From a virus (taxonomy: Duplodnaviria; Heunggongvirae; Uroviricota; Caudoviricetes): a stretch of 16,754 nt of DNA. The first letter of the stretch is position 1, and each line of letters starts with the position of its first letter. Position numbers and translations under genes: made by a program. Location of the stretch: the IMG/VR virus record IMGVR_UViG_2939172355_000006, positions 1 through 16,754 of that record; one strand, given 5' to 3'. The notes under the pieces are model-generated. The model was not told where the DNA came from and did not search any database. It saw nothing but the letters and a program-made list of their open reading frames with translations. This document shows, piece after piece, positions 2,287 through 16,754 of this stretch.

Positions 2287-2605
2287 CCGTTTAACTCCGT
2301 GGTTAATGGGTGCAACTATTTTCTGTTGGGCAGTGCATGAGACGCTATTTGACCTGGCTGGTCAGTGGATGAAACAACAGATAAAGAAAAGGCAGGCAAT
2401 TCGCCCGCCTGTCCTGATTTGTACTCACTCATTTTCCGACTGACAATTTACATAGCCAAAACGCTATCAAATCTGACAGTCTGCTTTGAGCGAGGAGCAG
2501 AGGTTAGTTTTAGTTAACCAAAATGATAAAAAGCAGTAGAAAAATCCGCTCATTACGTTATGGTTATAAGCCGCACATAATCATCCGAGCCAAATCCTCT
2601 TGATT

Positions 2606-3505
2606 TCAAAGAATTAGCACTTGCTCTTCACTAGAAACTATGGTTCTGACTTCACGCTCAAATATTGGATCCATTATCATTTTTCTATTTGTTGGAATAG
2701 TAAATTTACCGAGTACCATGACAATGCTACTCAACGGAAATAATTTTGGAGTAACATTTCCTAATTGAATCGTAGGATATATATTAAAGCCCCCTTTTAT
2801 CCTCATTGGCGAACCTTCAATGAAGTGTCGATAATTAAATTTCGCCATAGGGATTCTCGCCACATGCACTTTCATAATTACAGCAACCTGAGCTATTTTT
2901 ACTTTCTGGAGGTAAGTTGACAATCGTTCTAACTGCGTTGTTTCATAGAAAAAATCAGACCACGTTACAGTACTTGTTCCAGTAACAATTTTTATGCTGT
3001 TTCTCTTGTTGGGGTGAGCTTTTCCATATTCATAGATCTCCCGTAAGCTATCCATGTTCTTCACATAAGGGGCTTTCCGACCTCTCTTGACATAAACGCG
3101 GTCTGTAGTATCAGAAGGTGGATTTGCCTGCATAGCTGCAGCTTTTCTGCTTAATTTAGAGATATCATCTTCATCGAGTATATGTATACGGAATATATTA
3201 TTACCTGTGGCAAGCGCACGGCTGATATCATGACTGGAATCACTTGCATAAATTGTATTCAATCCTGAAGTTCCATACTGGCATAATTTGTCATGCGTGA
3301 AATTTTTTTCCAGTCTAAAGAAGGCGGGGATATGCAAGGTTTTATTAAAACTCCGACGAATATGGCTTTTGACATACACCAAATGAGCAGAGCAATTTGG
3401 GTCAGGACATTTGAGTGGATAGGGATTAACACTATAATTAAAAGTATTTACATTTACTAAAATCTGATTGTTATCAATAGCCTGAGTTATACGAATACCA
3501 CTCAT
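2606..3505 (-). CDS. Hypothetical 299 aa protein (AT-rich cargo gene in the Z/fun position between tail fiber assembly gene G and sheath gene FI)
   Basis: Clean ORF with ATG at 3505 preceded by GGAGGAG (4 nt spacing). Codon usage is visibly AT-rich compared with flanking phage genes. N-terminal Cys/His cluster (KCPDPNCSAHLVYVKSH...H...H...C). No family recognised by eye. Confidence 0.75.
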   Translation of the reverse strand: MSGIRITQAIDNNQILVNVNTFNYSVNPYPLKCPDPNCSAHLVYVKSHIRRSFNKTLHIPAFFRLEKNFTHDKLCQYGTSGLNTIYASDSSHDISRALATGNNIFRIHILDEDDISKLSRKAAAMQANPPSDTTDRVYVKRGRKAPYVKNMDSLREIYEYGKAHPNKRNSIKIVTGTSTVTWSDFFYETTQLERLSTYLQKVKIAQVAVIMKVHVARIPMAKFNYRHFIEGSPMRIKGGFNIYPTIQLGNVTPKLFPLSSIVMVLGKFTIPTNRKMIMDPIFEREVRTIVSSEEQVLIL

Positions 3506-3645
3506 TACTCCTCCATAAAGATAGGCGCAAGCATTTAGTAATAAACCATTAACATGCCGAGATCATACCCGATCATTGAAATGTAAACACTCCCCTAAGA
3601 CGGCTGCTGGCATAATATTTTATGACATCAGCAATGCCCACCTCT

Positions 3646-3685
3646 GGCACAGAGTGGACTGTCAGATTAGGCTTTACTCTGTGCC
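3646..3685. repeat. Inverted repeat GGCACAGAGT ... ACTCTGTGCC (10 bp arms, 20 nt loop) between gene G and the cargo gene
   Basis: Perfect 10 bp arms at 3646-3655 and 3676-3685. Not followed by a U tract on either strand, so more likely a regulatory or processing structure than a simple terminator. Confidence 0.5.
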
Positions 3686-3720
3686 ATAGATATGTAAGCC
3701 CACACTAGAGCTCATACAAC

Positions 3721-4248
3721 TTATTGCGGCATTTCCGGCCATTCAGGATTTGCAGGATCCACACGACTGACCAGAACACTATAGCGTTCCCATGCCTCCA
3801 GTCGACTACGCTCCTCATCTGTTGCCATATTCAGCCTGACCGCGCGCTCCAGCGGCAAAATCACGGATTCAGCTTCGGAAAGCAAAGCTGCCTTATGTAA
3901 TTCCGCCAGTTTCTGCTGTTCGTCTGCCGTATAAATCCGCTTAATCACGGCACCATCCTTAAACATCCATTTACCTGAGTCGTCAGCACGTCGGTTGGAG
4001 GTAATATCAGGAACCTCAACAACGCTAAAACCTTCAGGATTAAGCGTTGAAGCATCTCTGGTGATAGCGACAATAATATTATTTTCATCGTAAACAATCT
4101 TTATTGTGTCTGGCTGAAAGTTCTTCACTTCCTCATACCAGTTTTTTCCGTCCTCAGAGTAAAGCCAGATAACTCCGTGTTTCTTTGTTAACTCATACTG
4201 TTCCAGTGTTTTAGCGTTACCCGCTTTTATGTTCTTTAAGTGCATCAT
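3721..4248 (-). CDS. Tail fiber assembly protein (P2 gpG-like chaperone)
   Basis: 175 aa product [23 protein letters not shown]...[20 protein letters not shown]...[27 protein letters not shown] has the characteristic tail-fiber-assembly (Tfa/gpG) sequence pattern and sits immediately 3' of the tail fiber gene. Confidence 0.85.
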
Positions 4249-4249
4249 A

Positions 4250-5347
4250 TTAAACGCTCGCTACATTATACCAGGTGCCATTTATATACTTTTGAACGGG
4301 TCTGTAATAAACGCCCGCTATATTATCGGCAGAGTTGGACCCTGTATCCTGAACATTAATACCAGACAATACATGACCTGACGGGCACTGGAAATTCCAT
4401 GTTTGCCAGTTGTTCACTCCATAATATTGCTGTGACCCAAGTCGAACATCTTTCACATATCTGGAATCAAAATTGCCATAGTTGCCAGGAATAACTTGCG
4501 AGCCACAAAGCCAGTTACCGTTATTATCCATGTACGCCTGACCATCGGTGCCATTGGCTGTCCTTGAGTTATTAATCATGTAGATGCCAAATTGCTTATT
4601 TCCCAGACCGCCAATCATAAATTTGCGGTCGGCATGGTCCTGACGGAGCAAAGCCTGAGCACCATCAGTGGATACCGCATTACGTCCAAAAATAACATTC
4701 TGGTCACGCATATGAATCCACATGCCTGTGCTGCTGTTAATTGCAAGGCGGTTTGCGTACACCCATGCGTTAGTTGTTATATCTCCTGTAACATCCAGAG
4801 CGTGCCCCATAGTTATGCGACCAGTTCTGAGATTCAACGAAAAGGGGCGTAGTGGCCCGATATCACCATTTTCCCCCTCATTCTCTCGTGTGGGGATAAT
4901 ATGCAGGCATTCTTCAGAACGGCGAAAAATAGCACCAAAGGATGAATTAAAGATTCTCAGTGCATTGACTGTCGATATTTTTACTTCACTGCTGAAAAGG
5001 GCTTTAACAAGGACAGACAAAGCATCCCATTTAAGATTCATCAGGTCTTTTGTTGTGGTGCCCTGACGGCTTCTCCATTTGAAATATTCATTGCCGTTGT
5101 CGCCTGTTTCAAACCACATGTATGAATCAGTGTCACCATCGGCATCATTTTTAAATCCAATCTTCGCCCAGTCAGTATTTCGAATCCAGGCAAGGATTGA
5201 GTCGTTTTCAAAAGTAAGTCCACCGGACAAGGTATCGCCATTTTTTTGCACGGCGTTCCCGGCTCGGTTTACCGTTTCCTGTAAACCGAGATATTCGATA
5301 ACGGCGGCAACGGTCGATTTAGCCAGAATACCGTGAGCGCGCTGGTT
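4250..5347 (-). pseudogene. Tail fiber protein (P2 gpH-like), C-terminal ~365 codons; 5'-truncated, no start codon
   Basis: The frame opens directly after an in-frame stop at 5348-5350 and reads ...GILAKSTVAAVIEYLGLQETVNRAGNAVQKNGDTLSGGLTFENDSILAWIRNTDWAKIGF...[17 protein letters not shown], matching the conserved middle and C-terminal receptor-binding part of P2-type tail fibers. The N-terminal baseplate-attachment domain is missing. The track start at 5251 is a GTG inside the fragment. Confidence 0.72.
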
Positions 5348-5691
5348 TCAGGTTCATACTCAATCACCGCCCCGTCAGGGAAACGGATATGCAGGGCATC
5401 CGCCGACGCAGACGGCGCGGGGTTATCGCCGGAATAAATCCCCGGCAGAACGAACGCCGTGTCGAGTTCACCACCCACGGCCAGAATCAGCACCTGTTCC
5501 CCCACGGAAGGTGCCCACCATGTGCGCGAACGCCCGGCGCGATGGGTCAGCCACTGAAGCCAGTCGGTGCACATGCCGCCGGTCTGCACACGGCAGCGAC
5601 CGGCATTAAGGTCGGTTTCGACGATAATGCCGGTGCGGATCATGTTGCGCAGTGCGCGCGCGAGTTCCTGAATATTTGCGAGAGTGTTCAT
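5269..5691 (-). pseudogene. Baseplate spike protein (P2 gpV-like), N-terminal fragment fused out of frame into the tail fiber remnant
   Basis: From the ATG at 5691: MNTLANIQELARALRNMIRTGIIVETDLNAGRCRVQTGG...IRFPDGAVIEYEPETSALTV matches the gpV N-terminus, then reads FWLNRPLPPLSNISVYRKR*, which is the tail fiber DNA in a different frame. Baseplate genes W, J and I are absent. Confidence 0.7.
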
Positions 5692-5774
5692 GCGTGTGAG
5701 ATTGCACAATATATAAAAGTTATGCTATCTGGATTCATTTGTAGAACGACCATACAACATTCGAGGAGAGCGTA

Positions 5775-6560
5775 ATGTTCAGTGATAATGTGACTAATGC
5801 GTGGTGGTTTATCTCTTTGTATCTATTTTTATTAATAGCATTAACATTTGTTACCTTTGGTAAAAGTAATCTTATGAGGTTTATTGCACATCATTTCAAT
5901 CTTGAGTATTCAGACAGAAAGTTAAAAATGCTCGACAAAAAATGGCGCGACATTCAACTATTTAAAATAATTAACGGAATCAATGTATCAGGCATCGAAG
6001 ATGTGAGAATGATACAGCAGGGGCTGATTGATGGAAAACTAAAAACATCGTATTTTTTCCTTACTCGCTTCTGGGGTGACATAACAAAACCACCACACAT
6101 AATTAAAACAACAATTGTAATTCTGGCCAGTATTATTTATATTCTCTTCGCATGTTATATACACAATGAACAATCCGCTATAGTAAGGGATGCCATAGGT
6201 ATACCATATAAAAATATGATGTACTATGTTTATAGTGACAAAGTTCTTTTATCCTTCAAAAATAAAACGGTTGAATTTAATAAAACTTATAGCCTTGCCG
6301 ATTGCAAGAGTCTGCAAAACGTATTTATAAAAGACACACTTCCCGAGATCGCCTGCAATAAGCTCTTACAGCTAAACAAGGAGGACTCCGAATGGTTAAG
6401 TCAGGAGATTAAAGATAATAACAGCTACAGAAAAACATTATTAATAATGTCCCTAACCTATTTCATTTCAGGTCTGCTTATATTCCTGTCATATACAAAA
6501 TTCCTTTACGCCAATAAGAAGGTTTTAGAATACAAAGCATCAAATAAAAACCACTCATAA
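5775..6560 (+). CDS. Hypothetical integral membrane protein, 261 aa (AT-rich insertion between S and V, opposite strand to the late genes)
   Basis: ATG at 5775 preceded by GAGGAG (4 nt spacing). Three strongly hydrophobic segments (AWWFISLYLFLLIALTFVTF; IIKTTIVILASIIYILFACYI; LLIMSLTYFISGLLIFLSYT). Very AT-rich; no family recognised. Confidence 0.6.
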   Translation: MFSDNVTNAWWFISLYLFLLIALTFVTFGKSNLMRFIAHHFNLEYSDRKLKMLDKKWRDIQLFKIINGINVSGIEDVRMIQQGLIDGKLKTSYFFLTRFWGDITKPPHIIKTTIVILASIIYILFACYIHNEQSAIVRDAIGIPYKNMMYYVYSDKVLLSFKNKTVEFNKTYSLADCKSLQNVFIKDTLPEIACNKLLQLNKEDSEWLSQEIKDNNSYRKTLLIMSLTYFISGLLIFLSYTKFLYANKKVLEYKASNKNHS

Positions 6561-6570
6561 ACCTCTAAAT

Positions 6571-6597
6571 ATTGAGCGACCAGCACGGCCGCTCAAT
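6571..6597. terminator. Hairpin ATTGAGCG ... CGCTCAAT between convergent genes (membrane protein gene and S)
   Basis: 8 bp inverted repeat with an 11 nt loop, located between the two convergent stop codons (6560 and 6632). U-rich flank is modest on both sides. Confidence 0.45.
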
Positions 6598-6631
6598 GCT
6601 TAATTGCGCATCAGCCTCTGCCTGGATAAAA

Positions 6632-7084
6632 CTAACGCTCAAGGTGAGCCAGGATAATCTCTTCAATCATCTGCACATCCTCACCGGTAAAGCCGAGCAG
6701 AGGACGCGCCGGATAATCAATTTTCTTACCGTCTTTCCGGTTTTCTTCCGACAGACCGAACTGATGCACACTGGCGATTTTCGGTGACTTCCCGCCGTAA
6801 AACTCCATTGATGCCTGTTCCGGGCTGGCGCGGATATGCAAAAAACGACTGGTGATAAGTTTCGCAAACATTTTTCGCTTAACACGACCGGTCTTTTTTC
6901 TGGCGCTCTGCTGCTGGCGTGGCGCGTAGGGTGTGCCGTCCGGAGTTTTCTGTGCCATCACCCGACGCTGCTGACTCTGCCGCAGGCGTTTCGCCAGTTC
7001 GGCACTCAGTCGCCGACGCCCTGACGGTGACAGCGATTCAATCAGTCCGGTCAGCCGGTCTTCAAAACGCTTAAACTCATTCAT
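6632..7084 (-). CDS. Tail completion protein S (P2 gpS-like)
   Basis: 150 aa MNEFKRFEDRLTGLIESLSPSGRRRLSAELAKRLRQSQQRRVMAQKTPDGTPYAPRQQQ...IILAHLER; matches P2 gpS in length and sequence as recalled. Start overlaps the end of R by 8 nt. Confidence 0.85.
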   Translation of the reverse strand: MNEFKRFEDRLTGLIESLSPSGRRRLSAELAKRLRQSQQRRVMAQKTPDGTPYAPRQQQSARKKTGRVKRKMFAKLITSRFLHIRASPEQASMEFYGGKSPKIASVHQFGLSEENRKDGKKIDYPARPLLGFTGEDVQMIEEIILAHLER

Positions 7085-7544
7085 CCCACTTGCTCACCAG
7101 TTCGCCATTGATATACAGCTCCATCGGGCGGGTGACCGGCTCCGGCGGCGGAGGTTCCGGGATATTCTTCACATGCAGCGCGCCGTCCACCTCACTGACC
7201 AGCGTGCGCTCGGTCAGCATCAGGCTGATACTGATATCAAAGCTGCTGTCATTGTTGATGTCCGCATAAAACGTGAAGCCCTTTTTCTGGCCTGCGTCGG
7301 TGGTCATGATGTCGGGCTGATTTTCCCGCAGCCACGCTAGCACCGGCACGATGAGCAGGTCAAAATCACCGGTAAAGTCGGTCACAATGACATTGAGCGT
7401 GTAACGCTTTTCAAATGACAGCGACCTCGCCAGTGTGGAGGCAATACTCCCGTTATCCACGAATATCCGCAGCATCTCGGGACTGGTTTTCAGCACCGTG
7501 ACAGCATCAGTCAGCGCCCTGCGCAGGCTGTCGGGTTTGAGCAT
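7077..7544 (-). CDS. Tail completion protein R (P2 gpR-like)
   Basis: 155 aa MLKPDSLRRALTDAVTVLKTSPEMLRIFVDNGSIASTLARSLSFEKRYTLNVIVTDFTGDFDLLIVPVLAWLREN...; matches P2 gpR in length and sequence as recalled. Confidence 0.85.
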   Translation of the reverse strand: MLKPDSLRRALTDAVTVLKTSPEMLRIFVDNGSIASTLARSLSFEKRYTLNVIVTDFTGDFDLLIVPVLAWLRENQPDIMTTDAGQKKGFTFYADINNDSSFDISISLMLTERTLVSEVDGALHVKNIPEPPPPEPVTRPMELYINGELVSKWDE

Positions 7545-7797
7545 CGTTTTCGTCCTGACAGTGTTTAATCATTTTTACCTGGCTGGCACAGCGTGCCAGC
7601 GCGTTCTCAAGCTGCCGGATATCAGCACTTAAATCGCCGTTCGTCTCCGGGTCACTGCCCGGCATCGGGCAAAGGCTCACTTTCGGGCAGGCGTTGTGGA
7701 CAATCACTGGCGTCGGCGCAGGCCGGGCGCTGGTGCAACCGGCGCACAGCATCAGGCAGGTCAGCGCCGTACCAGCGGCGAAAATCTTCGTTTTCAT
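7507..7797 (-). CDS. lysC: LysC, outer-membrane lipoprotein spanin (Rz1-like), encoded out of frame within the 3' part of lysB
   Basis: From the ATG at 7797: MKTKIFAAGTALTCLMLCAGC... has a signal peptide with a lipobox (LCAGC), Pro-rich, 96 aa. Embedded in an alternative frame of the lysB region (overlap 7652-7797) and extending into R, the known P2 spanin arrangement. The ORF-track extension to 7914 is rejected. Confidence 0.7.
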   Translation of the reverse strand: MKTKIFAAGTALTCLMLCAGCTSARPAPTPVIVHNACPKVSLCPMPGSDPETNGDLSADIRQLENALARCASQVKMIKHCQDENDAQTRQPAQGAD

Positions 7798-8077
7798 TAA
7801 GTAACCTCGTGATGGTTTTCTCGCGCTGTGCTTCACGCTTCGCGGCGTTCTCCAGCTCCTGACGCAGTGCCACCTGCGCCAGCTCGTTTTTGTCTGCCCT
7901 GGTAAGGGCAACATGAAGCTGATTTTTCAGCATGGTGATGGTCGTCTGCTGTTCACTGGCGACGTTGTTCGCCCTGTCCAGCGAGGCGCGCAGGCTGGCA
8001 TTTTTGTGTTTCACCAGAAACAGACCGGCCACCGCCAGTGATAACAACACGACCAGCACAATCATCAGCTTTGACAT
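7652..8077 (-). CDS. lysB: LysB, inner-membrane spanin (Rz-like)
   Basis: 141 aa with an N-terminal TM segment (MSKLMIVLVVLLSLAVAGLFLV) followed by a charged coiled-coil-like region; matches P2 LysB. Confidence 0.8.
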   Translation of the reverse strand: MSKLMIVLVVLLSLAVAGLFLVKHKNASLRASLDRANNVASEQQTTITMLKNQLHVALTRADKNELAQVALRQELENAAKREAQREKTITRLLNENEDFRRWYGADLPDAVRRLHQRPACADASDCPQRLPESEPLPDAGQ

Positions 8078-8490
8078 GGTTCCCGCCCCTCAAAACGCTG
8101 ACAGCAGGCCGTACGTATCAGCCGGAAGAACACCGATGCCACGAGATAAATCAGCGCGGTAAAAATCCCCCCGGCAGCGACCAGCGAGATAAACGTCGCC
8201 ACCATCACTACCAGAGCCACTGACCGCCTGCGCCACGGCACCGGCTGCAAAAACAGCGCCGTGACAATCTTCACGGCCAGCGATTCCGGCGGCAGCTCCC
8301 GCCCGTAACGTTCCAGTACATACTCAGTGGCATACACGCCGACACCACCGGCAACCACACAGATAACCGTCGCCAGAATCGCCCAGGCGGCGACAAAACT
8401 GACGGCCACGCTCTGCGGGTAAATCAGGGACAGTGCCAGCATCAGCGCCAGCGACACGTTCAGCATCAGTGAAAGGGATAATTTCTTCAT
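8065..8490 (-). CDS. lysA: LysA, membrane protein of the P2 lysis cassette (lysis timing)
   Basis: 141 aa MKKLSLSLMLNVSLALMLALSLIYPQSVAV... with four hydrophobic segments; matches P2 LysA. No holin (Y) or endolysin (K) gene lies upstream of it; a portal fragment on the other strand abuts its start codon. Confidence 0.8.
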   Translation of the reverse strand: MKKLSLSLMLNVSLALMLALSLIYPQSVAVSFVAAWAILATVICVVAGGVGVYATEYVLERYGRELPPESLAVKIVTALFLQPVPWRRRSVALVVMVATFISLVAAGGIFTALIYLVASVFFRLIRTACCQRFEGREPCQS

Positions 8491-9364
8491 GGTGTTTACT
8501 CCGTTTACCGGTCTGGCAAAAAGCCTGCGTGCTGCCGTGCATCACAGCTCACCGATTTACGTCAAACGTAACATTCTGGCCTCAACGTTTATCCCACACC
8601 CGTGGCTTTCTCAGCAGGATTTCAGCCGCTTTGTGCTGGATTTTCTGGTATTCGGTAATGCGTTTCTGGAAAAGCGTTACAGCACCACCGGTAAGGTCAT
8701 CAGACTGGAAACCTCACCGGCAAAATATACCCGCCGTGGCGTGGAGGAGGATGTTTACTGGTGGGTGCCGTCCTTCAACGAGCCGACACCTTTCGCGCCC
8801 GGCTCCGTGTTTCACCTGCTGGAGCCGGATATTAATCAGGAGCTGTACGGTCTGCCGGAATATCTCAGCGCCCTTAACTCTGCCTGGCTGAATGAGTCGG
8901 CCACGCTGTTCCGCCGCAAGTATTACGAAAACGGCGCTCATGCCGGATATATCATGTACGTCACTGATGCCGTGCAGGATCGCAACGATATCGAAATGCT
9001 TCGCGAAAACATGGTGAAGTCGAAAGGCCGCAACAACTTTAAAAACCTGTTTCTCTATGCCCCGCAGGGGAAAGCTGACGGCATTAAAATTATCCCGCTC
9101 AGTGAAGTGGCAACGAAGGACGATTTTTTTAATATCAAAAAAGCCAGCGCCGCTGACCTGCTGGACGCGCACCGCATCCCCTTTCAGTTGATGGGCGGCA
9201 AGCCGGAGAACGTCGGGTCGCTGGGTGATATTGAGAAAGTAGCAAAGGTCTTTGTCCGCAATGAGCTTATCCCGTTACAGGACAGGATCCGCGAGATAAA
9301 CGGCTGGCTCGGTCAGGAGGTCATCCGATTTAAAAACTACTCACTGGACACTGACAACGGCTGA
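8489..9364 (+). pseudogene. Portal protein (P2 gpQ-like), C-terminal ~270 codons; 5'-truncated
   Basis: ...SPIYVKRNILASTFIPHPWLSQQDFSRFVLDFLVFGNAFLEKRY...YIMYVTDAVQDRNDIEMLRENMVKSKGRNNFKNLFLYAPQGKADGIKIIPL...GQEVIRFKNYSLDTDNG reads as the C-terminal part of a P2-family portal. Strand and position next to cos fit the P2 map. The N-terminal part and the terminase gene P are missing; the exact 5' boundary is uncertain. Confidence 0.6.
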
Positions 9365-9369
9365 ACATC

Positions 9370-9391
9370 GCCGCCTGCGGGCGGCTTTTTT
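9370..9391 (+). terminator. Rho-independent terminator after the portal fragment: GCCGCC-tgcg-GGCGGC followed by TTTTTT
   Basis: Perfect 6 bp GC stem with a 4 nt loop and a run of six T residues, 6 nt after the stop codon at 9362-9364. Confidence 0.65.
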
Positions 9392-9533
9392 ACACCCCGT
9401 CATCACGCCCTCACACGTTCGCCACTGTACAAAACACCCCGCAGACACACCAACGCCCCGGCAGGCCGACTAAACGCCATCACGACGCGCTCAGACGCTG
9501 AAAAAATAAAATCAGCACCACCGCCAGCGCGCA

Positions 9534-9552
9534 GTGCTTTCCCCGCCTCGCC
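9534..9552. other. cos site: 19 nt P2-type cohesive end sequence (reverse orientation in this window)
   Basis: GTGCTTTCCCCGCCTCGCC at 9534-9552 is the reverse complement of GGCGAGGCGGGGAAAGCAC, which I recall as the P2 cohesive end. Its position between the portal gene 3' end and the old/tin-position cargo is as expected. Confidence 0.55.
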
Positions 9553-9779
9553 CGCCCGCTTCATGGGTCGGTTTTGATGCAATTCCAAAAGCCGTCCAAA
9601 CTCTCTTAGGCTAAATGTCCAACGAGAAAATAGTTCTTTGAATGTGAATGCATTTTAATGCAGAGTTATGCCCAGCATTTTTGTACACTTCGATGTATCA
9701 AATGCGCTGCAAACGATCAAATATGGATGTTTTATCAAGCATCCCCCAAAAGATATTTACATCATCCCATGAGGTTAAG

Positions 9780-10853
9780 ATGGATAACAAAATCGTAGAA
9801 ATTGAGACAAATAAGCTTGATTTTGACCCTAAAAACCCACGTTTCTTTCGTCTCAATGATGCCAGTAACGCTGCAACAGTCATTGAGGAAATGTTAGATG
9901 ACGAAAGTGTCCACGATCTAATGCTATCAATCGGTCAGCAAGGTTACTTTCCTGGAGAACCTTTATTGGCAGTAAAAAGCAATGGAAACTACATCGTGGT
10001 TGAGGGAAACAGACGCTTAGCTGCTGTAAAGTTGCTCAATGGAGATCTGCTTCCTCCAAAAAGAAAACTTAAAGGTGTGCAAGAAATCATTGATGATACT
10101 ACCAATAAACCTAAGAAGCTTCCCTGCATCATTTATGAAAACCGAGAGGATGTACTGAGATATATCGGTTATCGTCATATAACTGGGGTCAAAGAATGGG
10201 ACTCATTATCTAAAGCCAAATACCTTAAAGAGTTATGTGATACTTTTTATTCACATGAGCCTAAAGAGATAGTATTAAAAAATCTGGCTCGTGAGATTGG
10301 GAGTAAACCACATTATGTTGCAACACTTCTCACTGCACTGAACTTATATGAAGTCGCGCATGACCATGAGTTTTTTAATTTACCCATGAAGGCTTCTGAC
10401 GTGGAATTTTCATATATAACCACAGCTTTGGGATATTCAAAAATCACAAACTGGTTAGGTCTACAGGATAAAAAGGATTTTTTAGACCCAAATTTAAATG
10501 AAGAAAACCTTAAGCGTTTATTCTCTTGGTTTTTTGTGCCTGACCAACAAGGTAGAACCATCATCGGTGAGTCTCGAAGAATAAAAGATATTGCAGCAGT
10601 GGTTGAGAAACCCGAAGCAATTGAAATTCTCATGAAAAGTTCAAACTTGGATGAAGCATATCTATATACCAGCGGAGAAAGAGAAGCATTAGATAAAGCA
10701 CTAAACGCAGCTAGTGTTAAATTAAGAGTAGTTTGGGATATGCTACTTAAAGCTAAAGAATTAACATTAGAGCATGAAGAGGCTGCATCTGAAATTTTTG
10801 AGATGTCAAAAAATATTAGAAATCAGATCAGAAGCAAAAGGGAGGATGATTGA
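9780..10853 (+). CDS. ParB/Srx-like nuclease-domain protein, 357 aa (cargo gene 1 in the old/tin position)
   Basis: ATG at 9780 preceded by GAGG (7 nt spacing). The N-terminal ~90 aa carry ParB N-terminal domain signatures: IVEIETNKLDFDPKNPR ... VHDLMLSIGQQGYFPGEPLLAVKSNGNYIVVEGNRRLAAVKLL (GxRR box at about nt 10005-10016). C-terminal two thirds are helical and unrecognised. AT-rich. The track start at 9648 has no RBS and is rejected. Confidence 0.8.
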   Translation: MDNKIVEIETNKLDFDPKNPRFFRLNDASNAATVIEEMLDDESVHDLMLSIGQQGYFPGEPLLAVKSNGNYIVVEGNRRLAAVKLLNGDLLPPKRKLKGVQEIIDDTTNKPKKLPCIIYENREDVLRYIGYRHITGVKEWDSLSKAKYLKELCDTFYSHEPKEIVLKNLAREIGSKPHYVATLLTALNLYEVAHDHEFFNLPMKASDVEFSYITTALGYSKITNWLGLQDKKDFLDPNLNEENLKRLFSWFFVPDQQGRTIIGESRRIKDIAAVVEKPEAIEILMKSSNLDEAYLYTSGEREALDKALNAASVKLRVVWDMLLKAKELTLEHEEAASEIFEMSKNIRNQIRSKREDD

Positions 10854-11883
10854 GATTATGATTACAAATCTTGATTCAATGCCTTCTAATGAGCCTTATT
10901 TATGGGCTGATTATATTGAGATATTGGCCTTAACTAATATCGACAGGTCATTCAGTCGAGGAGACCTATATAGCACACTGCAAGCTCAACCCGAAGCAGT
11001 ACTAGCTGAAACAGATGAAGCAGAAGAAGAGGGCGTTTATGATGTTGATGATGAAAATGATACGCCTGTACGCAAGAGAACAAAACGAAGTGTTAGTCGA
11101 GCATATACTGACAGAAAGTGGAGCTATGCGATAGGCTTCATACGACAACGCATTGATTTATTTGGGGATAGTTACCCTTTTACTTTATCAGAAGACAACG
11201 ATACTGTAGAGTTACGTGATATATCAGAAAAGCCACTGGAACATTTAGAAAGACTATATTTAGCTTTACTAATCTGTGCTAACATAAAATATGTCAACAT
11301 AATGAGCAGAAGAGAGATAACGCGCAGTTTTGAACTAATTAGTTTACCTATTTTTGAAAGCCTAATGCCTAGCGGTAGCATAATAAAAGCATGCTGGGCT
11401 TCTGGTGGTCAAGCGGCCCCTTACACTGGAACTCTATATAATAAATTTAAGAGTATTGCTTCCGATATCCGTTGCACAGCGAACTTCAAAGAACGAGATT
11501 TCAGTCGAGGAAATAGTGGTGACGGAGGCCTTGACATAATTGCCTGGCATCCAATGGGAGATCAACGAGATGCCATCCCTATTTCTTTTGTTCAGTGTGG
11601 CTGTTCTCAAGAAGAGTGGGAAGCGAAGCAGCTTGAGGCCTCACCTGCGATGCTCTACAGTAAATTCCCCGTAGCTCACCGATGGGCAACTTATTATTTC
11701 TTACCTCAAGATCTACGATGGATAGATGGTGAGTGGGCGCATAAAAATAAGTTAGGCGATGCTATTTTTGTTGATCGCCTAAGATTAATCAATTTAACCA
11801 GAGCATCTGATAATATTGATCACAGTCAAAATATTAGCTATCTAGATATCATCCTTGATCCTTCCAGCGCGATCGCTGCTTAA
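10846..11883 (+). CDS. Hypothetical ~340 aa protein, candidate PD-(D/E)xK-type nuclease (cargo gene 2), translationally coupled to the ParB-like gene
   Basis: Start ATG at 10846 overlaps the upstream stop (ATGATTGA) with GGAGG immediately 5'; an alternative ATG is at 10858. C-terminal region has ...GNSGDGGLDIIAWHP-(x21)-ISFVQCGCSQEEWEAK..., compatible with a D ... E-x-K catalytic core (about nt 11520-11630). Stop TAA at 11881-11883 overlaps the convergent methyltransferase stop. Confidence 0.65.
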   Translation: MIEIMITNLDSMPSNEPYLWADYIEILALTNIDRSFSRGDLYSTLQAQPEAVLAETDEAEEEGVYDVDDENDTPVRKRTKRSVSRAYTDRKWSYAIGFIRQRIDLFGDSYPFTLSEDNDTVELRDISEKPLEHLERLYLALLICANIKYVNIMSRREITRSFELISLPIFESLMPSGSIIKACWASGGQAAPYTGTLYNKFKSIASDIRCTANFKERDFSRGNSGDGGLDIIAWHPMGDQRDAIPISFVQCGCSQEEWEAKQLEASPAMLYSKFPVAHRWATYYFLPQDLRWIDGEWAHKNKLGDAIFVDRLRLINLTRASDNIDHSQNISYLDIILDPSSAIAA

Positions 11884-12818
11884 TCCCATAAATCTGGAAG
11901 GTTTCTAGCAACCGCCTCAAACAATGGAGGCGGTACTGCATTACCTACCACAGTATATTTCATATTAATAGAAGCCCGTTCAGTTTCTGGGAAAATTAAA
12001 TCCCCAAAACCTTGTAAAATAGCAGCCTCTCGATAGCTAAACCTACGAGCTGGTGCATCCGAAGTAAATTGCCACTTATCAGGTCCCAATTTTTCTAATG
12101 TTGGACTTATTGGATGTAGAGGCATATGTCTAGGATTTGCAACAATTGTTTTAGATATCTGATCCCAATCTTGCCTACGGTTTCGCGATAGATAATACCA
12201 ATGAAAATCGGCGTCATAAAACTCGCCAACAGGCCAAACAGGCATATGCCCAATAGCATCACGAATTGTGGAATATGGTGTCAAACCATCACCATGTGTT
12301 GGTTTTGGAAATTTGTATGTAATACCGTAGTCCTTTCGTATTCCTACGATAAAGATTCGCTTCCTATCTTGGGATACCCCATAATGGGACGCATTCAGAA
12401 TTTGCGAGCTTACTGTATAACCTGCTTCTTCGAAAACTTTGAATTGATCCTTTAATAAATGCTCAAAGTTACGCCTTACCATACCAGAGACATTCTCTAC
12501 AATGAATGCTTTTGGCTTAATTTTACTCAAAGCACGGGCAAACTCTAAATATAGTGTATTAATCTTTCTATCTGCCTTCCTTGCCCCACCTTGACTAAAT
12601 CCTTGGCAAGGATAGCATCCGATGAGCAACTCAGCAGAAGGGAACGACTGGAGCCCTGAGATATCGCCCAAAATGTAGTCAGTTTCAGGATGGTTTTCTA
12701 AGTAAACGTCCCTTGCGTAAGGCAAAATATCATTTGCCATAAGCACATTGAAACCTGCGTTCAAAACTCCCGCATCAGAACCACCACATCCAGAAAAAAG
12801 TGAAACTACAGTTGGCAT
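11880..12818 (-). CDS. DNA (cytosine-5)-methyltransferase, 312 aa (cargo gene 3)
   Basis: Canonical m5C-MTase motifs in standard order: FSGCGG (motif I, aa 8-13), PCQGFS (motif IV, aa 70-75), ENV (motif VI, aa 108-110), QDRKRIFIVG (motif VIII), GNAVPPPL (motif X). ATG at 12818 preceded by GGAGG at 5 nt. Convergent with the upstream ORF, with a 4 nt overlap (TTAA). Confidence 0.9.
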   Translation of the reverse strand: MPTVVSLFSGCGGSDAGVLNAGFNVLMANDILPYARDVYLENHPETDYILGDISGLQSFPSAELLIGCYPCQGFSQGGARKADRKINTLYLEFARALSKIKPKAFIVENVSGMVRRNFEHLLKDQFKVFEEAGYTVSSQILNASHYGVSQDRKRIFIVGIRKDYGITYKFPKPTHGDGLTPYSTIRDAIGHMPVWPVGEFYDADFHWYYLSRNRRQDWDQISKTIVANPRHMPLHPISPTLEKLGPDKWQFTSDAPARRFSYREAAILQGFGDLIFPETERASINMKYTVVGNAVPPPLFEAVARNLPDLWD

Positions 12819-13060
12819 TGACCCCTCCTAAAAACCGACCGCGTATTATAGCGAAACACCCCGTTGGGAAAAGCTAGATTTTGCCAAGTCTTGATATTCT
12901 CACGTTTTAGTAGTTGTGGCCATCTTTAACGAGAAAAAGATAAAATTGACTTCTCATTAATTTTCAATAGGTTTAATTGTAAGCTCAAACTAACGCCTCG
13001 CGACACTCGTTATTCAACCCCGCCAGCCCTGAAAACAAGTTTCACGACTGGCGGCGTTCT

Positions 13061-13267
13061 CTATCGTCTGCGTTGTGGTGGCGCAACTCTGGACTGACCG
13101 ATATGGTTAAACCGCCCGTAATTATCCCGGACTATTTCGGCACACCCGACCAGCTCATCGGGCGTCAGATTTTCGTTGACCATAATCCGCTGTAAACGCT
13201 GAACAATAGCCATCAGCTTGATATTTTTAGTTTTATGGTGCGGTATCTCGCCTGGTATTCTGTGCAT
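13061..13267 (-). CDS. Small hypothetical protein, 68 aa, translationally coupled (TAATG) to the upstream gene
   Basis: ATG at 13265-13267 overlaps the TAA of the preceding gene. MHRIPGEIPHHKTKNIKLMAIVQRLQRIMVNENLTPDELVGCAEIVRDNYGRFNHIGQSRVAPPQRRR. No recognisable domain; could be a regulator. Low confidence that it is expressed. Confidence 0.4.
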   Translation of the reverse strand: MHRIPGEIPHHKTKNIKLMAIVQRLQRIMVNENLTPDELVGCAEIVRDNYGRFNHIGQSRVAPPQRRR

Positions 13268-13719
13268 TATCCAAGCCACCCGTTTTGCTGTGCACGCTCC
13301 ATCTGTTCATCTGAATAGTTCCATGCTCCATCCGTGGCAACCATTGCCCCGCCAGACATCCCCGTCTCTGGTTCATACATAACAGCAAGGCCGAGCTGAT
13401 GCATAATTTCATGATTAATTCTGAATACCAGACCACGCTCACTAAGTTCTTTCCAGTTCACAATCTCACATGCGCCTGTATTAAGCCGCTCAATACTTAG
13501 CAAGACATAATCTTCCAGCCAGTCTGACAGGTCAGTAACATCTGTTATCCGGGCTTCAACCTTTCGCCCCGTATACACACCCTGCACCCATTCATGCAAA
13601 ATCAACGTGTCCCCGCGCTCATAATTACGGTCATTTTTCCGAAACTCTGCGCGTTTCTTTCCTTCCAGCACAAGGTCAAAATATTTTGCGTGCAGCTTTA
13701 CCTCGTGAATTTTTGCCAT
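13267..13719 (-). CDS. Hypothetical 150 aa protein with ASCH/DUF3850-like N-terminal region and a C-terminal HExxH motif
   Basis: ATG at 13719 overlaps the upstream stop (TAATG) with GGAG 9 nt upstream. [44 protein letters not shown]... resembles the small ASCH-like proteins found in P2-family early operons; the tail contains FRINHEIMHQLGL (HExxH). Confidence 0.55.
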   Translation of the reverse strand: MAKIHEVKLHAKYFDLVLEGKKRAEFRKNDRNYERGDTLILHEWVQGVYTGRKVEARITDVTDLSDWLEDYVLLSIERLNTGACEIVNWKELSERGLVFRINHEIMHQLGLAVMYEPETGMSGGAMVATDGAWNYSDEQMERAQQNGWLG

Positions 13720-14252
13720 TATGTCCACTCCATTACTGTTGAGAATCCCGGCCACTCATCAGCGACCGGATACGTGAATTTTTTCCCGTCATAATTTACG
13801 GTCGCTCCACGCGCCAGCGCCTCAAGCTCCCATCGCTGAGGCCTGATACCGTTCTGAGCAAGGTCAACGCGGATACGGGTGATTTGCATTCGTTCCGACC
13901 GGGTCAGTCTGGCCGACGGTGCAATTTCATGTGTTTTTAACGGGCTTCCGTTTCTTTGTTGACGATTTGGTGTTTTCAGGCCGTGTTTTAATGCTCCCCT
14001 GAGCGCCCTCACGACCTCCGGGTCATTCCATTCGATAACACCGTCATCAACCAGATTTAGCACTGCTGCGGCGTGCTCAGAAGGTGTGGGAGCCGGTAAC
14101 GAAGCATCACTACCGGTGAGCTTTGTGATGTGGCGAATCATGGCGTCAAGATGAGAAGAAAAGCGCGTTGCTGCGTCGGCCTGTGCTTCGGTTCTGACCT
14201 GTTGCAGCAGTAATGCGTATTTACCGCACTGATTTTCAGAAACTGTATGCAT
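13719..14252 (-). CDS. Early-operon ORF, 177 aa; probably a deletion fusion whose C-terminal ~140 aa derive from the 3' end of replication initiator gene A
   Basis: ATG at 14252 with GGAG at 6 nt. The C-terminal part (...[38 protein letters not shown]...[21 protein letters not shown]) matches what I recall as the C-terminus of P2 gpA, but no rolling-circle initiator domain and no ~2.3 kb A gene exist anywhere between B and cos. The fusion interpretation is an inference. Confidence 0.5.
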
Positions 14253-14315
14253 GACTTTCTCCAGGCAAAAAGAAGCCCCGCACAATTAAGTGCGTTAAAA
14301 ACTCTGGTTAATTAC

Positions 14316-14816
14316 TTAATGCAGATATTGCTCTGGTTTTACCGACGTCAGGATTGTCGGTGCATACTCAAACAGGCTGAATAATTCACGTAATGCACGG
14401 AATAAGGCATCACGCCAGTAACATGATTCTTCATTAATTCGCCAGTATGGCTGGTTGAATTCTTTTTCAGTCAATCCGGCATGCATAAATAAAGTACGGC
14501 GCTGACTGACAGTTAAAAAGCTAATATATGCATACTCACTTGCACCGACCTGACGGCGTTTTGAGAATGCCCCACGCAATTCATCAATTGCACATACCAG
14601 TCGTTCACGTTCGACGTCGTTCATTTCTTCAAAACGCATCGTTGCGTGACGCTGTTTTAACTGTGCATGAAAGCAAACCGTTAGCCGTTCGCGCTCCATC
14701 ATCTGATTATAATAATCACATGTATCCTGCCAGCGAGGGACGGCAAGATGCTTGCCAATTATCCGGCGCATAGCTGCTGGCTGTTTTTCAACGAGATTGA
14801 GCGTCATCACTGTCAT
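14316..14816 (-). CDS. Replication protein B (P2 gpB-like, helicase loader)
   Basis: 166 aa MTVMTLNLVEKQPAAMRRIIGKHLAVPRWQDTCDYYNQMMERERLTVCFHAQLKQRH...; length and position (after cox and a small ORF) match P2 gene B. Confidence 0.65.
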   Translation of the reverse strand: MTVMTLNLVEKQPAAMRRIIGKHLAVPRWQDTCDYYNQMMERERLTVCFHAQLKQRHATMRFEEMNDVERERLVCAIDELRGAFSKRRQVGASEYAYISFLTVSQRRTLFMHAGLTEKEFNQPYWRINEESCYWRDALFRALRELFSLFEYAPTILTSVKPEQYLH

Positions 14817-14983
14817 TTCCAGCCCCTCCGGCTTTTCAGAAAGGTCAGAGCCTTTTTTAACGGACTCTGTTTTTTGGTGCGGATAATGATTCCCTTACGC
14901 CCCTTACCGTGGGTGATGGTGAAGTCAATCGCCCTGGGGCTTTCGTTACGCAGTAACTGAGCAATACAACGCGGTTCACTCAT
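14813..14983 (-). CDS. Small early-operon ORF between cox and B (P2 orf78 position), 56 aa
   Basis: ATG at 14983 lies 2 nt after the cox stop; the stop overlaps the B start (ATGA). MSEPRCIAQLLRNESPRAIDFTITHGKGRKGIIIRTKKQSPLKKALTFLKSRRGWK. Start choice is uncertain (alternative ATG at 15010 has no RBS). Confidence 0.4.
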   Translation of the reverse strand: MSEPRCIAQLLRNESPRAIDFTITHGKGRKGIIIRTKKQSPLKKALTFLKSRRGWK

Positions 14984-14985
14984 AA

Positions 14986-15258
14986 TCACAACCCCATCCA
15001 CAAAAGCCATGCATCACGCTGTTCAACTGGTCGGTTATAAAACGCCTCTCGTACAGCGCGATTAAACTCTGGAATGAAAACCCACTTCTCACCGACACGA
15101 GCGTTCGGCTTACTTGGATCACGAAGCTCAATAACTGGCAACTTATTCTCTTTTACCATCTTGACTACAGCCGTTTCTGGCTTACCAAGTAACTCTGCAA
15201 ACTTAACCGTATGTACCGCATCAATCGGGTACTGAATCACATAGTCATTGACTTCCAT
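14986..15258 (-). CDS. cox: Cox-like excisionase / directionality factor and early-promoter regulator
   Basis: 90 aa, first gene of the rightward early operon, divergent from C. The central region (...KLPVIELRDPSKPNARVGEKWVFIPEFN...WLLWMGL) resembles P2-family Cox proteins (P2 Cox is 91 aa). Confidence 0.7.
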   Translation of the reverse strand: MEVNDYVIQYPIDAVHTVKFAELLGKPETAVVKMVKENKLPVIELRDPSKPNARVGEKWVFIPEFNRAVREAFYNRPVEQRDAWLLWMGL

Positions 15259-15297
15259 TGATTAGCCCTTTTTGCTTTCGTGTTACCCTTATTAGAT

Positions 15298-15338
15298 CCA
15301 GTCCCTTCTAGGTCGCACCTGTCCTTTCTAGGGACTGG
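15298..15338. promoter_or_regulatory. Operator-like element in the cox-C divergent promoter region: two 12 bp direct repeats (GTCCCTTCTAGG / GTCCTTTCTAGG) nested in an inverted repeat CCAGTCCCT ... AGGGACTGG
   Basis: Direct repeats at 15301-15312 and 15321-15332, 20 bp centre to centre (two helical turns); the outer 9 bp arms at 15298-15306 and 15330-15338 are perfect reverse complements. P2 C repressor is known to bind direct repeats at Pe. Confidence 0.45.
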
Positions 15339-15373
15339 CTAACACACTCAAAAGGTCACCAATACACAACCTT

Positions 15374-15403
15374 TTGACGGGAATATAAGTCACCAATAGG
15401 TTA
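15374..15403 (+). promoter_or_regulatory. Candidate Pc promoter for the repressor gene (TTGACG, 17 bp spacer, TAGGTT), implying a near-leaderless transcript
   Basis: -35 TTGACG at 15374-15379 and -10 TAGGTT at 15397-15402 with a 17 bp spacer. The predicted start is about 7 nt before the C ATG, and there is no Shine-Dalgarno sequence ahead of C. Confidence 0.35.
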
Positions 15404-15410
15404 CTGTCAA

Positions 15411-15704
15411 ATGCAGACATTCGAAAAACTGAAAGCGATTAGGAAAGCAGAAGGCTTAACACAGGCGAAATTCAGCGAAATTAGCGGGATAGCTCTAGGA
15501 ACAGTCAAAAATTACGAAAGTGGGCATAAAGACCCTGGTCTCAGCATCGTTATGCGAGTCACAAATACGCCTTTATTTAAAAAATATACGCTCTGGTTAA
15601 TGACTGGTGATACGTCACCACAAGCTGGTCAGATCGCGCCGGCTCTCGCACACATTGGGCAAAAACCAACAGAATCAGACCACTCCGAAAAACAGACTGG
15701 TTAA
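15411..15704 (+). CDS. C: Immunity repressor C (P2 C-like)
   Basis: 97 aa (P2 C is 99 aa); the ...FKKYTLWLMTGDTSPQAGQIAPALAHIGQKPTESDHSEKQTG tail is close to P2 C as recalled. Divergent from cox and upstream of int, as in P2. Confidence 0.8.
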   Translation: MQTFEKLKAIRKAEGLTQAKFSEISGIALGTVKNYESGHKDPGLSIVMRVTNTPLFKKYTLWLMTGDTSPQAGQIAPALAHIGQKPTESDHSEKQTG

Positions 15705-15773
15705 CACTCTATAAACATTACATTTTCACCATTTGTTACCAAGATGGTGAATACAGCGTCAGAGGGCTTTCTT

Positions 15774-16754
15774 ATGTCAATTAAGAAGCTCGATGATGGA
15801 CGCTATGAAGTGGACATTAGACCTCGCGGTCGCGACGGAAAACGCATCCGCAGGAAATTTGAAAGAAAAGCTGAGGCTGTAGCATTTGAGCGATACACAA
15901 TCGCCTACGCCAGCCAGAAAGAATGGGCAGGTCAGCGAGCAGATCGCAGAACTTTGAGTGAGTTGCTGAACATCTGGTGGAAATATCACGGGCAAAACCA
16001 CGAGCATGGAACAAAAGAGTTTAATCATCTGCTCAAAACCATCAGCGGCATAGGTGATATACCAGTGAGCCGGATGAGCAAAAGAGCTTTGATGGATTAT
16101 CGTTCCATGCGACTACGTGATGGTATCAGTGCCGCAACGATAAACCGTGACATGTACCGATTATCCGGCATGTTCACAAAATTAATTCAATTGGATGAAT
16201 TTTCCGGGCAACACCCAATTCACGGACTGCCGCCACTGGCGGAGGCCAACCCTGAAATGACGTTCCTGGAAAAAGCAGAAATCGAAAAACTGTTAAATGT
16301 TTTGGATGGTGATGACTTACTTGTCGCACTTTTATGTCTGAGCACTGGAGGAAGATGGACGGAAGTTGCCACGCTAAAACCAGCACAGATTACAAATTGC
16401 AGGGTTACCTTCCTGAAAACCAAAAACGGTAAAAAGCGAACCGTGCCGATTTCTGAGGAACTGGAGAAAAAAGTTAAAGAGGAGGCCAGCGCTAAATTAT
16501 TCAAAGTTGATTATGAGAAGTTTTGCGGGATTTTACGCAGAGTGAAGCCAGATATACCACCCAATCAGGCAACCCACATCCTGCGGCATACATTCGCAAG
16601 CCATTTCATGATGAATGGGGGCAATATAATCGCACTGCAACAGATTCTGGGACATGCGAGCATTCAGCAGACGATGGCCTATGCGCACCTTGCGCCTGAC
16701 TACCTGCAAAATGCCGTCGCGCTGAATCCTCTAAAAGGCGGAGTGACGTTATAA
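15774..16754 (+). CDS. int: Tyrosine integrase (P2 Int-like)
   Basis: ATG at 15774 preceded by AGAGGG (7 nt spacing). 326 aa with an N-terminal arm-binding region (MSIKKLDDGRYEVDIRPRGRDGKRIRRKFERKAEAVAFE) and catalytic-domain signatures near the C-terminus (HILRHTFASH; LGHASIQQTMAYAHL with the catalytic Tyr). Stop TAA is the last codon of the window. Confidence 0.9.
   Translation: MSIKKLDDGRYEVDIRPRGRDGKRIRRKFERKAEAVAFERYTIAYASQKEWAGQRADRRTLSELLNIWWKYHGQNHEHGTKEFNHLLKTISGIGDIPVSRMSKRALMDYRSMRLRDGISAATINRDMYRLSGMFTKLIQLDEFSGQHPIHGLPPLAEANPEMTFLEKAEIEKLLNVLDGDDLLVALLCLSTGGRWTEVATLKPAQITNCRVTFLKTKNGKKRTVPISEELEKKVKEEASAKLFKVDYEKFCGILRRVKPDIPPNQATHILRHTFASHFMMNGGNIIALQQILGHASIQQTMAYAHLAPDYLQNAVALNPLKGGVTL

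Follow-up and report, generated by a model that had tools for sequence, protein, structure and literature searches.

A candidate restriction-modification module with a ParB-like partner and a predicted PD-(D/E)xK nuclease in a decayed P2-type prophage of Escherichia coli

The three-gene locus

The subject of this study is a three-gene island, made up of a ParB/KorB-like gene, a putative nuclease gene and a C5 cytosine DNA methyltransferase (methylase) gene, in a 16,754-nucleotide (nt) stretch of DNA, positions 1 to 16,754 of the virus record IMGVR_UViG_2939172355_000006 (hereafter the window). The window is a segment of an Escherichia coli chromosome and carries a heavily decayed P2-type prophage. 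The results are best read as describing an uncharacterised two-subunit restriction-modification module, a reading that we favour with moderate confidence. Many complete E. coli genomes, SMS-3-5 among them, match window bases 9400-13000 at 100% identity, and in the intact prophage of SMS-3-5 the same three genes lie with the portal gene Q on one side and the replication gene A on the other, a position that is a documented defence hotspot of P2-like phages (PMC9519451; PMC9122126). The island has a low guanine-plus-cytosine (GC) content (0.37-0.42), and its genes are the gp98-gp96-Mth trio (ParB-like, nuclease, methylase) of phage Wphi from E. coli W:

9780..10853, plus strand: ParB/KorB-like gene, 357 amino acids (aa); 'gp98' of phage Wphi, called there from 9648
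10846..11883, plus strand: nuclease gene, 345 aa (RefSeq call); 'gp96' of phage Wphi
11880..12818, minus strand: C5 cytosine DNA methyltransferase gene, 312 aa; 'Mth' of phage Wphi; Pfam PF00145, E 1e-61

A preliminary description of the window had singled out the middle gene as a candidate PD-(D/E)xK effector nuclease with catalytic residues D254, E283 and K285, and its convergent methylase neighbour as the protecting activity. Translation of 10846-11883 (plus strand) yields GNSGDGGLDIIAWHPMGDQRDAIPISFVQCGCSQEEWEAK, in which the peptide quoted there is present, with 11520-11631 encoding DGGLDIIAWHP...EEWEAKQ in frame +2. The residue numbers are correct for the 369-aa open reading frame (ORF) from 10774 and become D230, E259 and K261 in the numbering used here, which runs from the 10846 start (345 aa). 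The 10774 start, which is the Wphi gp96 gene call, was rejected because it adds 24 residues that no homologue has and whose codons overlap the ParB-like gene; the homologues start at M5 of the 345-aa call (position 10858). The distance of 29 residues from the aspartate to the glutamate is as had been described, while 9 residues (MGDQRDAIP), and not 21, lie between the two quoted strings.

Predicted fold and active site of the nuclease

An AlphaFold2 model of the nuclease, made with a 46-sequence alignment, has a predicted local distance difference test score (pLDDT) of 90.6 and a predicted template modelling score (pTM) of 0.90. In the model a helical/winged-helix domain (approximately residues 1-125) is followed by a C-terminal PD-(D/E)xK-fold domain (approximately 130-330); a charged insertion at 64-84, found in E. 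coli and the closest relatives, is missing from homologues of approximately 305 aa. The elements of the C-terminal domain follow one another as helix 152-173 (E163), strand 179-182, strand 231-234 (D230 at its start), strand 246-251 (Q250), helices 258-273 (K261) and strand 281-285, and form a four-stranded mixed sheet flanked by helices in the alpha-beta-beta-beta-alpha-beta order of a PD-(D/E)xK core. The structure prediction is thus in agreement with the fold proposed in the preliminary description, and we consider it very probable that the protein adopts it. The segments that contain the putative active site are as follows:

11332..11334, plus strand: codon of E163, a conserved glutamate on the first core helix 152-173 (helix from the model)
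11509..11553, plus strand: G-x-x-G-D-G-G-L-D-I-I-A-W motif (motif II), with D226, and D230 at the start of strand 231-234
11581..11628, plus strand: strand 3 ISFVQCGC and helix W258-x-x-K261, with Q250 at the canonical D/E position and G252 at the usual lysine position
11761..11784, plus strand: C-terminal motif (I)FVDRLRL, resembling the VLVDGxRL tail of Mrr

D230 stands directly before strand 231-234 and provides the acidic residue at the N-terminus of strand 2. Strand 3, where a (D/E)-x-K motif would be sought, carries Q250-C-G/A252; the E-A-K segment that had been taken as motif III lies in the model on helix 258-264, after strand 3 and off strand 246-251, and the residue on the strand is Q250. 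A glutamine in place of D/E on strand 3 is known in Mrr and MspJI. Conservation was counted in an alignment of 142 representatives, 23-39% identical to the window protein:

D230: 142/142 homologues
D22, E25, R102, Y138: 142/142 each
D310, R311, R313: 142/142 each
E163: 140/142
G228: 140/142
D226: 139/142
Q250: 139/142
K261: 139/142
C253: 136/142
W258: 134/142
C251: 133/142
E259: 16/142

The aspartate and the lysine proposed earlier are therefore conserved throughout the family or nearly so, whereas the glutamate is mostly replaced by V, K, T, P, I or S. The motif by itself is weak, since a strict pattern of hydrophobic-D-hydrophobic...[DE]xK occurs in 7% of shuffles of the nuclease protein and a loose version in 44%; we take the site as real because of the conservation of its residues and not because of the motif pattern alone.

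The distribution of lysines in the family points to an altered arrangement of the active site. By an alignment-anchored count, 183 of 187 distinct homologues combine Q-x-(non-K)-C on strand 3 with W-x-x-K on the helix that follows. Strand 3 reads Q-C-K-C in three homologues (P0152, P0217, P0268), the same three that are devoid of the W-x-x-K lysine, and the remaining homologue (1/187) has neither arrangement and is also without E163, D226 and Q250. As the Q-C-K-C homologues are exactly those lacking K261 (Fisher p 3.7e-6, uncorrected for phylogeny), this swap suggests that the catalytic lysine was relocated from strand 3 to the adjacent helix. On these sequence patterns, the assignment of the active-site residues is likely to be correct, and the gene product is predicted to have nuclease activity, i.e. 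metal-dependent phosphodiester cleavage.

Invariant residues are also found outside the predicted catalytic centre, in W-A-D22-Y-x-E25-L on the first helix of the winged-helix domain (10909-10920), at R102 (11149-11151) and in V-D310-R311-x-R313-L (11773-11784). D22, E25, R102, D310, R311 and R313 could belong to an interface with the partner, to a site of DNA contact or to a second metal site. The cysteines C251 and C253 (Q250-C251-G252-C253, 11593-11604) flank the position vacated by the lysine; such a cysteine pair is unusual for strand 3 of a PD-(D/E)xK protein, and it might bind metal or sense the redox state.

The family is large and without a name. Searches with the single protein and with every member of two alignments gave no match to any Pfam, NCBIfam or PADLOC model, and for PADLOC this holds at E <= 1. 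All 203 matches in a 90%-identity cluster database are unnamed or 'hypothetical'; among 50%-identity clusters there are at least 1516 representatives at E <= 1e-3 and 451 at E <= 1e-30. The window protein itself, in identical form, is found on at least 1000 contigs.

The ParB-like partner and the methylase

The gene upstream of the nuclease gene has a GAGG ribosome-binding site for its 9780 start, and it either overlaps the nuclease gene by 8 nt or ends 4 nt away from it, depending on the start chosen. Its product consists of a ParB-N domain of the cytidine triphosphatase (CTPase) fold, a helix-turn-helix (HTH)-like domain and a helical C-terminal domain. The P-motif VVEGNRRLAAVKL is invariant, aligns with the GERRxRA nucleotide-binding motif of ParB structures and is kept even in an allele of 34% identity, described below, and in a Bacteroidota homologue. 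These features, the GxxRxxA motif in a ParB-N fold and an HTH after it, are those of a partition ParB. No ParA-like gene was found in the window or in the related loci examined; a parS-like site was not searched for. We lean, if only slightly, towards the partner being a nucleoside triphosphate (NTP)-binding, DNA-binding subunit that works with the nuclease. Upstream of the gene, a strong intrinsic-terminator-like hairpin on the plus strand (9368-9385; GCCGCC-TGCG-GGCGGC and then a T-run) lies directly 3' of a portal gene remnant and approximately 400 nt from the start of the ParB-like gene; no convincing sigma-70 consensus was found between the hairpin and that gene.

The methylase and nuclease genes converge, with an overlap of 4 nt. 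The best match of the methylase in the PDB is M.HaeIII, which aligns over residues 4-307 with the variable region included (E 1.6e-48). M.HhaI, in contrast, aligns over 5-175 only, and both M.HhaI and Dnmt1 are limited to the catalytic N-terminal part. Other annotators have named the protein BspRI-like or Mth; BspRI and MthTI are GGCC methylases. Because of the full-length similarity to M.HaeIII and these names, GGCC is the predicted target of the methylase. The best PADLOC match of the methylase is the DruM model of Druantia type II (E 1e-110, 368 bits), and an assignment to Druantia was rejected because DruE and the other Druantia genes are absent. Models of the DruM type evidently pick up this HaeIII-like clade and could give rise to false calls of partial Druantia systems.

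Gene order across loci

Gene order was compared in 25 loci of species-representative genomes and in 80 loci of metagenomes. Wherever the upstream side of the locus is not truncated, the nuclease gene has the ParB-like gene before it; the gap between the two has a median of 6 nt, and such near-zero gaps suggest stoichiometric co-production of the two proteins. Full-length copies of all three genes are present in 71 related loci; in 65 of these the C5 methylase gene is convergent and downstream (median gap 66 nt). A C5 methylase is found in 23/25 of the genome loci, none being detectable in L022 (which is cut upstream) and L026, and in nearly all informative metagenome loci. Altogether the nuclease stands beside the same well-conserved methylase in more than 90 loci from several proteobacterial classes, in prophages and non-phage islands; the settings of the module include integrase-flanked islands, other non-phage contexts and prophages.

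The mean identity to the window proteins is 52% for the ParB-like protein, 42% for the nuclease and 68% for the methylase. These identities co-vary, most closely between the ParB-like protein and the nuclease (rho 0.84) and less so between either of them and the methylase (approximately 0.60). Because the upstream ParB-like gene, which had been overlooked in the preliminary description, is an obligatory and co-evolving partner, the nuclease is probably not a stand-alone effector. The roles of effector for the nuclease and of protector for the methylase are those that we infer from the gene order.

Some loci depart from this arrangement. In the Comamonadaceae/Rhizobium group, a C5 methylase of 41% identity lies 3.3 kb away, behind a 1048-aa N6_Mtase-domain protein; a protein of approximately 1045 aa with an N6_Mtase-like segment stands between the nuclease gene and the distant 41% C5 methylase in L018-L020, L056 and L116 (e.g. 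L018:6915-10061). This subgroup may represent a larger composite system. In the Ramlibacter locus (L116), a Vsr gene directly follows the nuclease gene, and a NERD/UvrD helicase is also present. Vsr is a repair nuclease and the usual companion of 5-methylcytosine methylases.

Cassette exchange in E. coli

Of 5426 complete E. coli genomes, 103 carry the window allele (>= 99% identity), and another 36 contain a methylase gene of approximately 93% nucleotide identity. The diverged allele was examined in one of those 36, O145 RM9872, and in phage vB_EcoM-12474III, which has the same allele. Between the O145-type hotspot and the window, protein identity is 34% for the ParB-like protein, 26% for the nuclease and 97.8% for the methylase. 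Nucleotide homology to the O145-type P2 prophage ends at 9590 and is back at 11881, the first base past the nuclease/methylase junction, and these breakpoints delimit a further feature:

9591..11880, strand not assigned: exchangeable cassette (promoter region, ParB-like gene and nuclease gene), from blastn breakpoints

Because of the position of the breakpoints, we conclude that the ParB-like and nuclease genes were replaced as one unit while the methylase was kept. The diverged allele retains the GDGGFD, Q-C-G, W-x-x-K and ParB motifs. Exchange with the methylase kept would be expected if both pairs depend on, or are restrained by, the same methylation.

Insertion sequence (IS) elements have entered the module in the 103 genomes three times, twice as IS5 in the nuclease gene (at different positions) and once as IS2 just upstream of the ParB-like gene, in the interval between the hairpin and the gene start in strain E2. 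The methylase is intact in 103/103 genomes. The direction of these events fits a system in which the restriction half can be lost and the modification half cannot be the first to go.

Proposed mechanism and alternatives

We propose the following interlinked steps, in which a restriction-modification role of the trio is moderately probable. The winged-helix and PD-(D/E)xK protein would cut DNA using E163, D226/D230, Q250 and K261, in an active site that may be a permuted form of the Mrr/MspJI-type D...QxK arrangement, with K261 as the general-base lysine moved to the next helix. The ParB/KorB-like protein would bind DNA and nucleotide and thereby target, load or license the nuclease, so that the two proteins together would constitute the restriction half, with the HaeIII-like C5 methylase as the modification half. 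Unmethylated incoming DNA would be bound and cut, whereas the DNA of the lysogen would be shielded by 5-methylcytosine. The module as a whole is cargo of the P2-type prophage hotspot between Q and A. The anti-phage function of the trio and its specificity for GGCC are presumed, as are a physical complex of the ParB-like protein with the nuclease and its dependence on nucleotide.

Several observations weigh against this proposal. Sequence-profile methods place the nuclease in no known nuclease family (Pfam and PDB search): a PDB sequence search with the family profile gave nothing at E <= 10, and the best Foldseek E-value for the nuclease is 0.085. The three Q-C-K-C sequences may be one clade, which would weaken the Fisher statistic, and the proximity of K261 and E163 to D230 and Q250 is deduced from secondary structure and covariation. 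Mrr, the closest relative at the level of motifs, is modification-dependent and not modification-blocked. The role of the partner could be regulatory and not that of a subunit; in one Bacteroidota locus a C5 methylase is absent and an upstream Methyltransf_24 gene is present instead; and the three IS events are too few for statistics.

A more specific form of the proposal, which we offer only tentatively and regard as rather unlikely, is that the ParB/KorB-like protein acts as a DNA clamp gated by cytidine triphosphate (CTP) or another NTP, which loads at unmethylated methylase sites, slides, and delivers or activates the bound nuclease. If this is true, the module would represent a new NTP-dependent class of restriction-modification system, with a ParB-type switch in place of the ATP motors of Type I/III systems or the GTPase of McrBC, and an arms race with phage inhibitors would account for the fast exchange of the ParB-like and nuclease genes while the methylase stays fixed.

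It is improbable, in our estimation, that the nuclease is instead a stand-alone Type II (IIS/IIP-like) enzyme and the ParB-like protein a KorB-like or C-protein-like transcriptional controller that times nuclease against methylase. The nuclease does have its own winged-helix DNA-binding domain, as in SdaI, FokI and N.BspD6I, and the partner, with its ParB-type HTH, is similar to the repressor/clamp KorB; moreover, the nuclease and methylase genes converge and overlap at their ends, and no terminator separates them, so that regulation is probably needed. Controller proteins are small, however, whereas the partner has 357 aa and keeps an invariant nucleotide-binding P-motif that would be superfluous for a plain repressor. 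The divergence of the partner also parallels that of the nuclease (rho 0.84), the two are exchanged together as a single cassette, and the co-production suggested by the gaps between the two genes likewise argues against a controller.

A little less probable still is a modification-dependent, Mrr-like Type IV system, in which the nuclease and the ParB-like protein would act against foreign modified DNA and the methylase would serve, for example, to protect phage DNA from GGCC-type host restriction. The relationship to Mrr on which this would build is statistically insecure (hhalign probability 2-15%; no Pfam Mrr_cat match above E 0.1), and without functional coupling it is difficult to account for the nuclease standing beside the same methylase in more than 90 loci. 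The pairing of a methyl-dependent nuclease with a methylase would be self-destructive if their specificities overlapped, and a cassette swap that keeps the methylase fits protection better.

We consider it quite unlikely that the module is not immune at all and serves the maintenance of the element or methylase-nuclease addiction only, or that the nuclease fold has no catalytic activity. Proteins of the ParB fold classically function in partition or regulation, and the persistence of the module in a heavily decayed prophage could be explained by addiction alone. There is, on the other hand, no parA nearby (a parS-like repeat was not searched for); the near invariance of acidic, Q and K residues speaks for catalysis; the module sits in a defence hotspot; and addiction and defence are compatible in restriction-modification systems. 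Finally, the version of the preliminary description, a canonical site of D254 and E283-x-K285 in a self-sufficient effector nuclease, has hardly any probability left, as its D and K are conserved and its fold is as predicted but the glutamate is refuted by conservation (16/142), E-A-K lies on helix 258-264 with Q250 as the strand-3 residue, and the ParB-like partner is left out of account.

Comparison with known systems

The restriction-modification module proposed here shares features with several known systems. Mrr (winged helix and Mrr_cat) appears to have the same domain order as the nuclease, a winged helix and then a nuclease domain, and its motifs GDGGIDG...VQAKRW...VLVDGxRL seem to occur in the same order as GDGGLDII...VQCGC..W..K...IFVDRLRL here. 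The apparent likeness to Mrr and MspJI comprises GDGGxD before strand 2, Q in place of the acidic residue on strand 3, the W and the (V/L)VDxxRL tail. The nuclease differs from Mrr in that its lysine stands 11 residues after Q, on the next helix and not at Q+2, and in having an extra conserved Q-C-x-C cysteine pair; furthermore, Mrr is a solitary methyl-dependent enzyme, whereas this nuclease is always paired with a ParB-like gene and a methylase. The window protein has no match to Pfam Mrr_cat (PF04471), for which the best E of 0.13-0.16 was obtained in 1/46 and 2/142 homologues. In local hhalign comparisons with E. coli Mrr (single sequence and 21-sequence alignment), only the C-terminal VDxxRL segment is paired (probability 2-7%), and global alignment lines up all the motifs at low probability (overall probability 2-15%, global P 4e-4). 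With such weak profile-profile support, we do not claim membership of Mrr_cat and describe the nuclease as Mrr-like in design.

Relocation within the active site also occurs in the CCGG family (NgoMIV, Cfr10I, Bse634I, SgrAI, AgeI and BsaWI), where the glutamate is relocated and the lysine stays on the strand (S/T-x-K). Here, in contrast, the lysine appears to move and Q stays; there is no sequence similarity to these enzymes, which have no ParB-like partner.

The logic of a gene for a nucleotide-binding, DNA-binding subunit adjoining a nuclease gene is that of McrBC (a GTPase and the PD-(D/E)xK protein McrC) and of CglI/NgoAVII (R, N and a C5 methylase), and CglI resembles the present module also in having a C5 methylase in a three-gene module. 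The partner here has a ParB/Srx (CTPase) fold, and not that of an AAA+ or superfamily 2 (SF2) ATPase, the nuclease belongs to another family, and nucleotide dependence is presumed. In GmrSD, BrxU and SspE, too, a nucleotide-binding domain of the ParB superfamily is coupled to a DNA nuclease in an anti-phage setting. These consist of a DGQQR-type DUF262 and an HNH-like DUF1524 nuclease, are usually fused, are modification-dependent and have no cognate methylase, whereas the present module has a ParB-type GNRRLAA motif, a predicted PD-(D/E)xK nuclease, two genes and a methylase; no matches to Pfam DUF262 or DUF1524 were found in the trio.

PD-lambda-5 is likewise cargo of E. coli prophages, and the ParB-like start of its first protein matches residues 45-195 of the 401-aa call of the partner. 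It has a methyltransferase and has been described as a compacted system of restriction-modification and abortive infection (RM+Abi; Vassallo et al. 2022, PMC9519451). The partner matches PD-Lambda-5_A in PADLOC through its ParB-like N-terminal part only, at positions 1-158 of profiles of 428-592 positions. An identification of the module as PD-lambda-5 was rejected, as the profile is matched only at 1-158, the nuclease matches no PADLOC model and the gene content differs.

With the canonical CTP-dependent clamps ParB and KorB, the partner has in common a ParB-N fold with GxxRxxA followed by an HTH; it differs from them in being without parA, in its C-terminal domain and in that its gene accompanies nuclease and methylase genes in defence hotspots and genomic islands. 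In the passages searched of a 2025 survey of ParB-CTPase folds (PMC12704722), an association of ParB with nuclease and methylase is not mentioned. Database names for the proteins are 'hypothetical protein' or 'ParB N-terminal domain-containing protein', and no published description of the trio was found in searches that took in PDC-M38, RefSeq accessions, ParB and defence, Wphi and the P2 hotspot literature.

On the reading favoured here, the nuclease is a new family in a known superfamily with a new active-site permutation, and the module is a new restriction-modification variant with a ParB-fold partner. A large family annotated throughout as 'hypothetical' and lacking a Pfam model would thereby gain a proposed function with specific residues (E163, D230, Q250 and K261), and the proposed permutation of the PD-(D/E)xK site, from strand 3 to the next helix, is supported by the natural reversion Q-C-K-C. 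For 'orphan' ParB-CTPase-fold proteins, whose role is treated as open in recent surveys (PMC12704722), the module would offer a concrete role as nuclease partner in a methylase-linked system. Given its occurrence in 103/5426 complete E. coli genomes, and in 36 with the diverged allele, the module may affect phage therapy host range and plasmid uptake in clinical lineages. Phage Wphi and E. coli W, which carry it, are in common laboratory use, and the system is thus readily open to genetic work.

Other features of the window

A gene at 13267-13755, on the same (minus) strand as the methylase gene and approximately 450 nt past the methylase start (12818), encodes a DUF3850/ASCH (PUA-like) and DUF7415 protein and is a conserved backbone gene of these P2-like prophages. 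Fusions of ParB-CTPase with DUF3850 occur in phages, according to the 2025 ParB survey (PMC12704722); in the window, DUF3850 is a separate gene near the ParB-like gene, and not a fusion.

At the other end of the window, the chromosomal flank holds a cation-efflux gene (1-921; Cation_efflux and ZT_dimer), which is followed by ogr and then by tail sheath, tail fibre and portal genes, all three of them truncated. The portal remnant (8489-9364) has lost its N-terminus and is abutted by a DNZ54_00345-family lysis-cluster gene (8065-8490), which lies next to lysB; because these two abut, the lysozyme, holin, capsid and terminase genes must have been deleted. Only a remnant of replication gene A is left (13719-14285); the three-gene module has remained intact, and so has the integrase (15744 onward). 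This state of the prophage suggests that the cargo has been kept while the surrounding phage decays (window 1-9364 and 13267-16754).

Two further ORFs of low GC content have no match in Pfam or PADLOC. A 299-aa ORF on the minus strand (2606-3505; GC 0.37), flanked by the tail fibre assembly gene and the remnant of the tail sheath gene, sits at the Z/fun position, the second variable locus of P2 (PMC9519451), and could be another uncharacterised defence candidate. The other, a 261-aa ORF on the plus strand (5775-6560; GC 0.39) between a baseplate V-like gene and a virion morphogenesis gene, is hypothetical in RefSeq and looks like a third small cargo slot.

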